Below, in pieces: positions 40,879 through 45,147 of a stretch of 45,844 nucleotides of DNA. Under the pieces are notes generated by a model. It saw nothing but the letters and a program-made list of their open reading frames with translations. It was not told the DNA's origin and did no database searches. Both the position numbers and the translations under genes were made by a program. Source of the stretch: Myxococcota bacterium (GTDB lineage Bacteria; Myxococcota; XYA12-FULL-58-9; JALHOP01); assembly GCA_041288095.1 (NCBI GenBank), contig JBGGMJ010000203.1, forward strand, positions 1 to 45,844, read 5' to 3'. The number at the start of each line of letters is the position of its first letter. Within the stretch, counting starts at the first letter, position 1.

Positions 40879-40908
40879 CACATACACTGGCCGGCTTCGG
40901 GCTGGTCG
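40879..40908 (-). promoter_or_regulatory. Motif B promoter (proximal)
   Basis: Minus strand CGACC-N15-AGTGTATGTG. Confidence 0.5.
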
Positions 40909-40948
40909 CGTTTGGTTGGGCCAAAACGCAAAAACTAACGGGGTGCGC

Positions 40949-40977
40949 GTTTACACGTGTCCGATCGCCTTGGGCTT
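40949..40977 (-). promoter_or_regulatory. Motif B promoter (distal)
   Basis: Minus strand AAGCC-N15-CGTGTAAAC. Confidence 0.45.
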
Positions 40978-41080
40978 TTCTTTTGCGCAAAAAGCTCGAT
41001 CGCTGATTCTGCGCGCTGGCGGGCGACACGTCCGCGCCTTCGTCGCTGTGCTTTTGAGCTTAAAGGCGCTGATTTAGTGC

Positions 41081-42556
41081 TTAACGCGCGACGGAGGCTG
41101 CCATGAGCTGCTGGCGGCTCGCCCAGGTCGCGTTGGTCATCTGCATCACGGCTTCGATCGTCTGATTCTTCTGTTCCATGATGGCGTTGATGATCTCGCC
41201 TTCTTCCTGGATGCGCTCTTGCTCGCGGTCCGCGCGCAGCCGTGCCCGGGTCGCCCCTAGGGTGGCTTCTTTGGCGTCGAGCATCTTGTCCGCGGCCTTG
41301 TAGTTGGCGCCGGCCGAGACGCCTTGAAGGGCCGCGCTCGTGCCGAGAGTGATCGCTTGGCTGTTGCCGAGGGTGATCGCGCCAGAGGTGAACGCCTGCA
41401 TGGCGACCTGCGGCACCATCTGGCGAGCCATCTCGTTGATGACCATTTCCTTGGCCGCGTCGACGGAAAGCTGAACACCTTCTTGCGCCGCTCGGTCGAT
41501 GACGGTCTGTACCGCGGCATTCTGGGCTTCGGTGCTCAAGCCATTGAACACGGTTGATGCCGCCTGCTTCGACGCTTCGCTGAGGGCCGTCTTCATGGCC
41601 TCGGTCGACATGCTTTGGGCGGCTTGCTGGAACGACTGCTTGAGGCTCTCGACCGCCGCTTTGATGGCCGCGTCCTTCGCGGCGTTACCGGCTGTCTGAA
41701 TCGCGGTGCTCGCGGCTGCCTGCGCGCTCGCGGCAATACCGGTTGCCGCCGCGCCCGCTCCAGCGCTCGCGCCAATCGCCGCCGCACCCAGTGGAGCCGC
41801 GGCGCCAAAGGTGAAGATCGTCAGCACGATGGAGATGACGGTCACGACGACGCTGATCATCTCGGCCTGCTTGGCGTAGGCCTCGGCTTCCTTCTTCATC
41901 TCGCGCGCGTTTTCGGACTTCTTCTTGGCGTCTTCGATTGCCTGTTGACGCAGAGTCGTCGAGAACTCGTAGAGCTTGTTGTGCGTCTCGACGTTCTCGT
42001 TGGGATCGTTGATGTTCAGCTTCAAGAACGCCGCGAGCAGCTCGTCGGGGCTGAGGCCCGACACGTCGCGATTGATGACCAGCTGACCGGTAGTCGACAC
42101 ATTGGCGGCGCGCTGGCGCGCATCGACGACCGCGGAGTCGACGGCGAGGCCGAGGTTGTGCGCGAAGGTCTCGGCCGCCACGCGCTGGGTTTCGGTGAGC
42201 TGCACTCGGGGCGCCGATGCCGGACGCAGCCGCGTCTCGGCGGTGCCGAAGACCTGCTGATGGGCGCCGAGCTCGTCGACCGTGTTTGTCCGCCCGAGCG
42301 GAGCGGCGCCGTTCGCGCCAATCGTGCTGGTGCTGCGGCCGGCTTCGGCTTGTGGCGTGACCTGCGTGCGCTGTGTTGCGTGATCGACCAACGTGTTCAA
42401 GCGCGCCGTGGTTTCGCGGGTGAGATTCGGCTGGTTGGCGTTCGCCGTATTGTCCTGCATCTGCAGGCGACGCACCGCGCTGCTCTGTTCGTCGAGCTCT
42501 CGCGTCTGACGCGTATCGAGACGCTCAGACGGATTCTGGCGGATGGTCGAGCTCAT
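41081..42556 (-). CDS. T3SS major translocator-like protein (SctE/YopB/SseC-like architecture), paralogue 1
   Basis: MSSTIRQNPS; coiled coil; TM MISVVVTVISIVLTIFTFGAAAPL followed by an Ala/Gly hairpin; directly downstream of the SycD/LcrH-like chaperone; GAGGA RBS. Confidence 0.75.
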   Translation of the reverse strand: MSSTIRQNPSERLDTRQTRELDEQSSAVRRLQMQDNTANANQPNLTRETTARLNTLVDHATQRTQVTPQAEAGRSTSTIGANGAAPLGRTNTVDELGAHQQVFGTAETRLRPASAPRVQLTETQRVAAETFAHNLGLAVDSAVVDARQRAANVSTTGQLVINRDVSGLSPDELLAAFLKLNINDPNENVETHNKLYEFSTTLRQQAIEDAKKKSENAREMKKEAEAYAKQAEMISVVVTVISIVLTIFTFGAAAPLGAAAIGASAGAGAAATGIAASAQAAASTAIQTAGNAAKDAAIKAAVESLKQSFQQAAQSMSTEAMKTALSEASKQAASTVFNGLSTEAQNAAVQTVIDRAAQEGVQLSVDAAKEMVINEMARQMVPQVAMQAFTSGAITLGNSQAITLGTSAALQGVSAGANYKAADKMLDAKEATLGATRARLRADREQERIQEEGEIINAIMEQKNQTIEAVMQMTNATWASRQQLMAASVAR

Positions 42557-43814: not shown

Positions 43815-43887
43815 TGGCAAACCCTATAGCGCAACGCTGGGCGGGCGGCCAATCGCGATGACGCCGTAAATCCTGTCGCAGTGTCCG

Positions 43888-45069
43888 CTAGAGCATGTTG
43901 CGGGTGGTGCTGCTTCTCATTTCGTTCATGACCTTCAAGACAGAGGCCATGAGGTTGTAGAGCTGGTTCGCCTTCTGGTCGAAGTTCTGGAAGGCGGTCG
44001 AGGCCATCTGTCGCTTATTGCGGACAGTTTCCTGCATCGACTCGACGTCTTTGATGGTGTCGTTGAGACCAGCGCGGTCGACCGTCTTGCTCATCGGATA
44101 GCCGGCCATGGTCGCGACCTTGCCGTCCCTGTCGAGCGTCGACAGGTCGAACTTCTGCACCTCGATGGAGATGGTGACCTTCTCGGGATACTTGGCGCCG
44201 GCCGCCGCGGCGGACAGACGCTGCGAGTCGTCGACGAGCTGCGAGAGGTAGTCCGAGAGCTTCTCGGCCATGAGGTTGTAGTCTTGCAGGCGCTCGAGGA
44301 AGTACTTCTTGTCCTCGTTGGTCGCCTGGATCGACTCGCGGAACACGAAGAAGAGGATCTCCATCGCGTTCGCGCCGACCTGCGTCGACAGCTGGTTGAT
44401 GTAGTCGGCGGCTTTGCCGACATTGGCGGCGTTCGGGTTCGCTATAGCGGCCCGCACCGCGTCGACTGCCTGGTCGAAGCCGGCGCGGAACTGGGCGCCC
44501 TGGAGCTTCGCTAGGGTAGCGGTCGCGGTTTCCTTGTTCACCAGGTTGGGGAAGCCGCGCTCCGCCATGGCGTCGATGATCTCTTGATCGCCGTCGCGCA
44601 GCTCGGCCGTCAGGTGGCCGGTGAACTTGTTCGGATTGGCGCCGCGATCGACCGCGTCCGCCGGGACCCAGGAGCCGCTGGCGGTGTCGAGTCGGAAGCC
44701 CTGAGCCTCGAGAGTGCCTTGCAGCGCCGTGAAGTTGGCGCCGAGCTCGGCCTGCGCCTGGACCACCCCTCGGGCGGTCGTCATGTCGAAGCGGGAGCCG
44801 GCGGTCGTGGTGACCACGCCGTTCTGGAAGCTGGCGACGCTGGAGTGGGCGGTTGTGGTCGCGCGGTCCCCAAGCTGGTTCTGCGCGGTGGTCAGCGTTC
44901 GGCTGGCACCGGTGGTGTTGGTCTCGCCAAGGCGCGCCGCGCTGCCGGTTCGCACGGTTTGGCCATCCGGAGTGCCAGTGCCTTCGGTGGTGGCGTTGGT
45001 GCCGGTGGAGTCCGCGTTGATGCTCTGGGACTGAGCGCCTCTACGTCTGATTCGGTCGCCGCTGCTCAT
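43888..45069 (-). CDS. T3SS tip/filament-like protein (SctA/Bsp22/EspA-like C-terminal helix)
   Basis: Disordered S/T/G N-terminus MSSGDRIRRRG; C-terminal LNDTIKDVESMQETVRNKRQMASTAFQNFDQKANQLYNLMASVLKVMNEMRSSTTRNML; RBS AAGGAG; first gene of the cassette. Confidence 0.65.
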   Translation of the reverse strand: MSSGDRIRRRGAQSQSINADSTGTNATTEGTGTPDGQTVRTGSAARLGETNTTGASRTLTTAQNQLGDRATTTAHSSVASFQNGVVTTTAGSRFDMTTARGVVQAQAELGANFTALQGTLEAQGFRLDTASGSWVPADAVDRGANPNKFTGHLTAELRDGDQEIIDAMAERGFPNLVNKETATATLAKLQGAQFRAGFDQAVDAVRAAIANPNAANVGKAADYINQLSTQVGANAMEILFFVFRESIQATNEDKKYFLERLQDYNLMAEKLSDYLSQLVDDSQRLSAAAAGAKYPEKVTISIEVQKFDLSTLDRDGKVATMAGYPMSKTVDRAGLNDTIKDVESMQETVRNKRQMASTAFQNFDQKANQLYNLMASVLKVMNEMRSSTTRNML

Positions 45070-45117
45070 AACCCCTGCTCCTTAGACCGTCCGGTGGCGC
45101 TTGACGGACCCTGGCTC

Positions 45118-45147
45118 TACTTACACATGGCGATGCGGGCCAGGTTG
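45118..45147 (-). promoter_or_regulatory. Motif B promoter
   Basis: Minus strand CAACC-N15-TGTGTAAGTA, 48 nt upstream of ATG 45069. Confidence 0.6.

Follow-up and report, generated by a model that had tools for sequence, protein, structure and literature searches.

The DNA analysed here is a stretch of 45,844 nucleotides (nt) from an uncultured Myxococcota bacterium that is represented by metagenome-assembled genomes only (GenBank assembly GCA_041288095.1, contig JBGGMJ010000203.1), hereafter the window, with a G+C content of ~65%. It contains seven co-oriented genes on the minus strand (34945-45069), which encode a candidate translocon of a type III secretion system (T3SS), and whose intergenic regions carry repeated copies of the sequence CC-N16-GTGTA (motif B). 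Analysis of these copies supports, at the level of sequence, their interpretation as a directional, two-part, promoter-like element with a fixed spacer that is under purifying selection. The genes of the cluster are as follows:

43888..45069, minus strand: gene of a tip-like/filament-like protein, first of the cluster, 393 amino acids (aa), ATG at 45069
42681..43820, minus strand: gene of a translocator chaperone with two SycD/LcrH-type modules, 379 aa (matched in two stretches by NCBIfam TIGR02552 at 130.6 bits, cut-off 104.8)
41081..42556, minus strand: gene of a major translocator of the SctE/SseC family, 491 aa (Pfam SseC at 42.4 bits, cut-off 30.2)
39323..40828, minus strand: gene of a SctE paralogue, 501 aa (Pfam SseC, weak at 18 bits, below cut-off)
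38242..39285, minus strand: gene of a candidate minor translocator resembling SseD/SctB, 347 aa (NCBIfam translocon_SseD at 24.4 bits and E 2.6e-05, short of the cut-off, 130)
34945..38177, minus strand: two co-oriented genes of no family and with no motif B in front, 36063-38177 (704 aa) and 34945-36066 (373 aa)

A class II SycD/LcrH chaperone together with SctE and SctB, the combination that marks a T3SS translocon operon, is present in this cluster, with the SseD-like match and the second SseC match below cut-off. Five copies of the motif, B1 to B5, precede the start codons at 45069, 42556 and 40828, all on the minus strand, with the G of GTGTA at 45126, 42640, 42596, 40956 and 40887, respectively. 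A preliminary description of this DNA had reported these five sites on the coding strand, and our analysis confirmed their positions and orientation. They are listed below with their scores in a position weight matrix (PWM) that was derived from them:

45118..45147, minus strand: B1, before the tip-like gene, CAACC-N15-TGTGTAAGTA, end of GTGTA 53 nt from the ATG at 45069, 20.9 bits
42633..42660, minus strand: B2, distal, before the SctE gene 41081-42556, GACCC-N15-CGTGTATGT, end of GTGTA 80 nt from the ATG at 42556, 17.5 bits
42589..42616, minus strand: B3, proximal, before the same SctE gene, CCACC-N15-CGTGTAC, end of GTGTA 36 nt from the ATG, 12.8 bits (16.4-18.3 bits in three related loci)
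40949..40976, minus strand: B4, distal, before the SctE paralogue gene 39323-40828, AAGCC-N15-CGTGTAAACGCGC, end of GTGTA 124 nt from the ATG at 40828, 14.9 bits
40880..40907, minus strand: B5, proximal, before the SctE paralogue gene 39323-40828, CGACC-N15-AGTGTATGTG, end of GTGTA 55 nt from the ATG, 20.2 bits

Comparison of the five sites revealed that CC and GTGTA alone are invariant between them. The CC is placed exactly 16 nt upstream of GTGTA in each case, which equals the common spacer of 15 that had been noticed before plus one variable base. The consensus then suggested, nnRCC-N15-YGTGTA, proved too narrow: it fits three of the five sites from which it was drawn, and the other two break it because GACCC has a C at the R position and AGTGTA has an A at the Y position. 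The pattern RCC-N15-YGTGTA has five exact matches in the window against 0.48 expected, a number reached by none of 100 shuffles; the two matches besides these three sites are located at 4221-4244 (minus strand) and 9115-9138 (plus strand). The relaxed pattern CC-N16-GTGTA yields seven matches against 1.43 expected, and again none of 100 shuffles reaches seven. The three intergenic regions comprise 528 nt at 58-59% G+C, and were compared with 5000 dinucleotide shuffles. They contain six sense-strand copies of GTGTA against 0.35 expected (no shuffle reaches five), no antisense copy, and five copies of CC-N16-GTGTA against 0.03 expected. Overall, the sites exist, are far commoner than chance would allow and are directional.

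For scanning the whole window, the final PWM was limited to the informative columns (-20..-15 and 0..+7), with 300 shuffled windows as the null. It revealed a sixth site, B6, absent from the preliminary list, which scores 19.8 bits out of sample and exceeds the null maximum of 19.4 bits; the null expectation for scores of at least 17 bits is 0.023 per window. A first matrix that included the spacer columns was over-fitted, giving B6 only 7.3 bits owing to zero spacer counts, and was replaced. The site and the gene that follows it are:

4218..4246, minus strand: B6, CAACC-N15-CGTGTAAGTA, end of GTGTA 9 nt from the ATG at 4211
3924..4211, minus strand: 95-aa gene P0012, downstream of B6, of no family, with the G+C signature of coding DNA (0.65/0.43/0.81 at the three codon positions)

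B6 is almost a copy of B1, and occupies most of the 49-nt gap directly before the conserved 95-aa gene. This gene has four homologues of the same length that share 63-98% identity, and lacks a Pfam match. Its Atlas model is similar to small α/β domains of the FeS_assembly_P/ZT_dimer type (TM 0.56-0.67), which is a lead only. Neither Pfam, nor the homologues, nor the model ties the 95-aa gene to secretion, and it lies outside the translocon cluster. The motif is therefore not specific to translocon genes, as had been claimed, since a sixth site precedes an unrelated gene.

Alignment of homologues provided nine SctE sequences, which led to three loci (L001, L002 and L003) in species-representative genomes, all of them metagenome-assembled and labelled Myxococcota or Bdellovibrionales. 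Their SctE is 79, 77 and 48% identical to that of the window, respectively, and the gene order is the same. The conservation upstream of orthologues, on which the preliminary description had let its proposal depend, was found for all five sites in all three loci, and CC-N16-GTGTA is present in 20 of the 20 aligned sites. Among the alignment columns, 38 of 40 are invariant in GTGTA plus 3 nt and 21 of 30 at positions -20 to -15, the -35-like part, compared to 26 of 70 spacer columns and 154 of 388 among all other intergenic ones. The half-sites differ from the rest with a Fisher p of 7e-13, and the spacers do not differ from the other columns (p 0.79). These counts outline the footprint of a two-part DNA site with a spacer of fixed length and free sequence. 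Both halves and their spacing are under purifying selection in the four genomes, whereas the spacer sequence is free.

The arrangement of the sites is conserved as well. Distances to the start codons across the four genomes are 53-57, 80-82, 36-38, 124-126 and 55-57 nt for B1 to B5, respectively. The doubling before each SctE paralogue, as first described, is kept in all four genomes, with a spacing of 44, 44, 44 and 45 nt between B2 and B3 and of 69 nt in every genome between B4 and B5. As the CC half is kept at the right distance in the proximal tandem copies, these are complete sites rather than mere -10-like boxes. Individually, B1 is invariant in the window and the three related loci apart from a variable 7-nt patch in its spacer, the box AGCACC.GTGTATGTTTC of B2 is kept in all four genomes, and so is CGTGTAAACGCGC of B4 without any change. 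At B5, a second overlapping GTGTA at 40877-40881 is absent from L002 and L003.

Such a footprint bears on the idea that the element works at the level of RNA and not of DNA, being a processing or protein-binding site within a polycistronic transcript. All sites but one of the six are on the sense strand in gaps between co-oriented genes, and would hence be contained in read-through RNA. But B1 sits between divergent genes, the two halves have no complementarity and are not connected by a helix, and two conserved halves at a fixed distance around a free spacer are the signature of a DNA site. Furthermore, Rfam gave no match at E up to 1 in 32000-45844, and a consensus fold of the 5' untranslated region after B1 has no compensatory change among 10 predicted pairs. 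A role in RNA is barely plausible on these grounds.

Beyond the right end of the window, the related loci carry polyamine-synthesis genes, and a similar site, AGCC-N16-GTGTACGTTC, is found 12-13 nt before the S-adenosylmethionine decarboxylase gene (L001 6689, L002 6626 and L003 6665, all on the minus strand). Its scores of 12.4-13.2 bits are within the null range and the whole short intergenic region is conserved, and it was not counted as a copy of motif B.

The 20 aligned sites define the two parts of the element. The -35 part reads a at -20 (12/20), A at -19 (13/20), C at -18 and -17 (20/20 each), a (9/20) and G (14/20), and is followed by 12 free bases. The -10 part reads c (12/20), C or T (8 and 7 of 20), GTGTA (20/20), T or A (11 and 8 of 20), G (14/20), and T or C (12 and 8 of 20). 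[quoted passage not shown] ECF promoters typically have AAC at -35 and a -10 of the CGT type, according to PMC5758882. B1 and B6 read AAC-N17-GTGTAA, and a C precedes GTGTA, forming CGT, in four of the six window sites.

We propose that B1 to B6 are, more likely than not, promoters for RNA polymerase carrying an ECF-like (group IV) alternative sigma factor. Its -35 part would be (a)(A)CC, of which CC is invariant, and its -10 part nGTGTA(A/T)G(T/C), with exactly 16 bases from CC to GTGTA. The single promoter B1 would drive the tip-like gene and the chaperone gene, and two tandem promoters would precede each SctE paralogue, the second pair serving in addition the SctB-like gene and the next two genes. 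The tandem copies may raise or diversify the expression of the translocators. By analogy with the discriminators of 5-6 nt in sigma-E promoters, transcription would start ~11-12 nt after the G of GTGTA, that is, near 45115, 42629, 42585, 40945, 40876 and 4214 for B1 to B6. As GTGTA of B6 ends 9 nt before the ATG, a start at 4214 would give a leaderless or nearly leaderless mRNA.

Among known systems, the element can be compared with the promoters of Escherichia coli sigma-E (RpoE). These have GGAACTT and TCAAA preferentially 16 nt apart, a -10 element (T/C)GGTCAAAA and a discriminator of 5-6 nt (PMC1312014), and their -10 is given as "GTC" (PMC6648896). This spacing, together with the G before TC, translates into AAC-N17-GTCAAA. 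The generalized geometry of the sites here, (A)AC-N17-GTGTA(A/T), matches it: both are two-part and directional, with AAC at -35 in the best sites, 17 nt from AAC to a GT(C/G)(A/T)AA box and a free spacer. They differ in the -10, GTGTA here instead of GTCAAA, and in the -35, where GGAAC is absent and CC alone is kept between sites. GGAAC-N16-19-TCNAA is not enriched in the window (one match against 0.81 expected).

The same boxes could be housekeeping promoters of a lineage in which the principal sigma factor has an unusual consensus, the TA of GTGTA opening a TAnnnT -10 and GTG being its upstream extension. Housekeeping promoters of high-GC bacteria are degenerate, and after GTG the sites B2, B3 and B5 read TATGTT, TACCCT and TATGTG, the first two of which fit TAnnnT. 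Nevertheless, the bases 17-19 nt upstream of TA are unlike TTGACA, the TG of an extended -10 is one base out of register, and no PWM site of at least 10 bits is present upstream of the tol/exb, ccm, opp-like and lexA genes in the window. Taken together, we consider this explanation highly unlikely.

The window contains one sigma factor gene, followed by a gene for a proline-rich helical protein:

33343..34050, plus strand: the window's sole sigma gene, coding for an ECF-type factor (TIGR02937 at 71.8 bits, cut-off 42.9)
34219..34920, plus strand: the gene after the sigma gene, encoding a proline-rich helical protein, separated from it by a 168-nt gap with its own class-A site (described below)

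The sigma gene is located at the distal end of the cluster, beside lexA, and is 97-98% identical in L001 and L002. Comparison with the PDB sequences gave weak sigma-factor matches only, with a best E of 1.6e-05. Between lexA and the sigma gene (33200-33260, plus strand), TTGAACACGTGTCAAATGTTCAGC, which we take to resemble a LexA-type box, and a perfect palindrome CGCGTACGCG are invariant in three genomes, as is GAGAAGGTTCCTGGTGCTTTCGTTTTCCTGGC further downstream. In the product of the gene after the sigma gene, the helical core (residues ~55-187) hardly varies, and the proline-rich N-terminus and the acidic tail are variable. AlphaFold2 predicted six helices from three sequences at a mean pLDDT of 50.3, too poor for a fold search. 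This protein could be an anti-sigma factor.

Control of T3SS genes through a conserved two-part box has a precedent in the hrp-box, the full consensus of which is GGAAC(C)-N15/16-CCACNNA. The sigma factor that reads it belongs to the ECF type, as is proposed here. The general premise of the preliminary description, that ECF sigma factors govern T3SS regulons, is established for HrpL, which drives T3SS genes via the hrp-box and whose -35 GGAAC loses function upon any change (PMC5263251), and for BtrS of Bordetella. Within the bsc locus, the bsp22/bopN part requires BtrS; this factor also acts on a distant effector gene and only weakly on other apparatus genes, and has an anti-sigma factor, BtrA, that is exported by the T3SS (PMC7498569). 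BtrS thus acts on the tip/translocon part, and here an ECF sigma gene and the next gene, of no family, border a translocon cluster; this likeness is one of gene arrangement only.

Several observations weigh against the proposed ECF-type promoters. The five sites themselves supplied the matrix, which makes their PWM scores (12.8-20.9 bits) circular, and the footprint comes from four genomes of one lineage, two of which are close to the window. Between sites, the definition of the -35 part is poor, CC alone being invariant, and AAC is found at -35 in two of the six window sites (B1 and B6), whereas the others have ACC, CAC, AGC or GAC there. The -35 here, (a)ACC, stands against a GGAAC that tolerates no substitution in the hrp-box, and CCACNNA is unlike GTGTA; GGAAC occurs in none of the six sites, and GGAAC-N16/17-CCAC has no match in the window. 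Upstream of the sigma gene (33217-33342), neither motif B nor motif A, the second class treated below, is present. The final matrix finds nothing of at least 10 bits there, the best score, 8.5 bits in the first matrix, falls on the start codon, and the alignment with L001 and L002 displays other conserved blocks. Since the sigma gene has no motif upstream, there is no sign of autoregulation, which is common, though not universal, among ECF sigma factors. Finally, an invariant block of ~24 nt, GGTTACTTGCAACAACCTGGCCCG (45127-45150, minus strand), overlaps the -35 of B1 and extends 5' of it. B1 resides in the 152 nt that separate the tip-like gene from the divergent gene 45222-45833, and the block may be a binding site for another factor or may serve this divergent gene.

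The long block at B1 is also an argument for reading the boxes as operator sites of a DNA-binding regulator, such as a T3SS-specific activator or repressor, with the true promoters elsewhere in the same intergenic regions. It is far longer than a -35 element and contains the palindromic TTGCAA; other intergenic blocks are conserved too, such as GCGATGCT between B2 and B3, and there are T3SS regulons in which AraC-type regulators recognize two-part boxes (PIP box). However, the halves of motif B are unrelated in sequence, forming neither a direct nor an inverted repeat, the sites are strictly directional without an antisense copy, and their spacing is that of ECF promoters. No gene of an AraC-type or other regulator was found in the cluster by Pfam and NCBIfam. 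Nor was a separate sigma-70-type promoter (TTGACA, 16-18 nt, TATAAT) found in 32000-45844, where 1.4 would be expected by chance. We therefore regard operators as unlikely, and continue with the ECF-like promoters as the favoured explanation.

A second class of two-part sites, class A, was found in the window. CAAC-N15/16-CGATA has three matches against 0.19 expected, a generous statistic because the pattern was chosen after one instance had been seen. Each of them lies between genes and faces the gene that follows:

34117..34142, plus strand: class-A site, CAACC-N15-CGATAA, 77 nt before the gene 34219-34920
6342..6365, plus strand: class-A site, CAAC-N15-CGATA(AC), before the gene 6403-6966
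971..995, minus strand: class-A site, CAAC-N16-CGATA(CG), before a nuclease-like gene with its start at 945

In the extended form CAAC-N15/16-CGATA(A/C)(C/G), the class stands upstream of three unrelated genes, of which the nuclease-like one has an ExeM/NucH-type match below cut-off. The site at 34117 keeps both halves, with a variable spacer, in L001 (18376-18400, minus strand) and L002 (18394-18418, minus strand). The sequence ACTCCG is common to two of the sites, a few bases downstream. The consensus of sigma-28 (FliA/WhiG) is TAAA-N15-GCCGATAA. The -10 regions of class A, GCCGATAC, GGCGATAA and CCCGATAA, each agree with the sigma-28 -10 at seven of eight positions, but the -35 is CAAC and not TAAA, and no sigma-28 gene was seen in the window with Pfam and NCBIfam. 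The preliminary description had distinguished two promoter classes. A second class is indeed present at three intergenic sites, one of them kept in two related loci, and we assume that it corresponds to the motif A named there.

That description went further and assigned the two classes to different sigma factors in a two-tier cascade, which would separate translocon expression from that of effectors or orphan genes. The classes do share a similar -35 (CAAC/CAACC) and differ in the -10 (GTGTA versus CGATA), an ECF sigma gene lies at the cluster end, and the gene next to it has a class-A site. A model is offered by sigma-X and sigma-W of Bacillus subtilis, which share the AAC -35 and take their specificity from the -10 (CGAC versus CGTA); a change in the -10 alone switches promoters between the two (PMC5758882). 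Classes A and B, both with CAAC, could be kept apart by the -10 in the same manner, although the organisms are unrelated, the -10 sequences are others and one sigma factor or two may be involved here. Against the cascade, class B also precedes a gene without a visible link to secretion, class A amounts to three sites, and neither the window nor the annotated 21-kb loci contain a second sigma gene. Moreover, the sole sigma gene has neither motif upstream, so that the window offers no link between the tiers. The full cascade carries a low probability in our view.

The pieces may be combined into one picture, for which we see a rather slim chance as a whole: a free-standing translocon module (tip-like protein, double chaperone, two SctE and SctB-like protein) on tandem promoters of an undescribed ECF-like sigma factor with a GTGTA -10; a sister class with the same CAAC -35 and a CGATA -10, read by a second sigma factor and split off by -10 discrimination as for sigma-X and sigma-W; and the products of 33343-34050 and 34219-34920 as a sigma factor and its anti-sigma factor, through which secretion and expression would be coupled, like BtrS and BtrA.

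Among the proteins of the cluster, the tip-like protein is 78-91% identical in the three related loci. It has no Pfam or NCBIfam match above cut-off, and its search against the PDB sequences returned nothing meaningful (best E 0.49). Its language-model neighbours in the Atlas (0.91-0.94) include clusters with LcrV or EspA in 12% of members, which is a lead only. The chaperone, which also matches tetratricopeptide repeat (TPR) families in Pfam, combines two SycD/LcrH-like TPR modules in a single fused protein, and the gene of the major translocator is duplicated (39323-42556). The SctE encoded by 41081-42556 belongs to a rare family, with 10 homologues at E <=0.001 when 8000 candidates out of a database of 5.8 billion proteins were scored, and shares 50-62% identity with its paralogue over two segments (tblastn). 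The last two genes, 36063-38177 and 34945-36066, overlap by 4 nt.

The remaining intergenic regions of the cluster have no motif B: both the tip/chaperone region and the region 38178-38241, between the SctB-like gene and the gene 36063-38177, hold other conserved blocks. In the former, GTTGCGCTATAGGGT (43821-43835, minus strand) abuts the start codon of the chaperone gene and is invariant in four genomes, and the rest of that region is poorly conserved. In the latter, after the SctB-like gene, CGCCACGCTAG-(loop)-CTAGCGGCG (38190-38225, minus strand) can form a hairpin without a T-run, which is kept in L001 and L002 and partly in L003. Terminator-like hairpins are not enriched in 32000-45844 (13 against 11.0 expected).

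Outside the cluster, the window consists of ordinary chromosomal genes according to Pfam, including those of a lipid A acyltransferase, SPFH proteins, ccm, an ABC peptide transporter, a tolQRAB-like set, a Ser/Thr kinase and lexA. No T3SS apparatus genes were found in the window with Pfam and NCBIfam, nor in the ~6.7 kb past its right end in the related loci. The translocon cluster is located apart from any T3SS apparatus genes in the window and the related loci.

A full-text literature search found no paper on translocon regulation in Myxococcota, and no sigma factor described with a GTGTA or CGTGTA -10. Within the literature searched, the motif sequence and its tandem arrangement appear undescribed, whereas the principle of an alternative sigma factor controlling secretion genes is familiar; the present case, built on sequence alone, would be an instance of it. 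T3SS regulation outside Proteobacteria and Chlamydiae is essentially unstudied. A compact motif backed by a footprint offers a handle for predicting the secretion regulon of these uncultured bacteria by scanning their assemblies, and may also help to find the sigma factor that reads it with reporters in a heterologous host.

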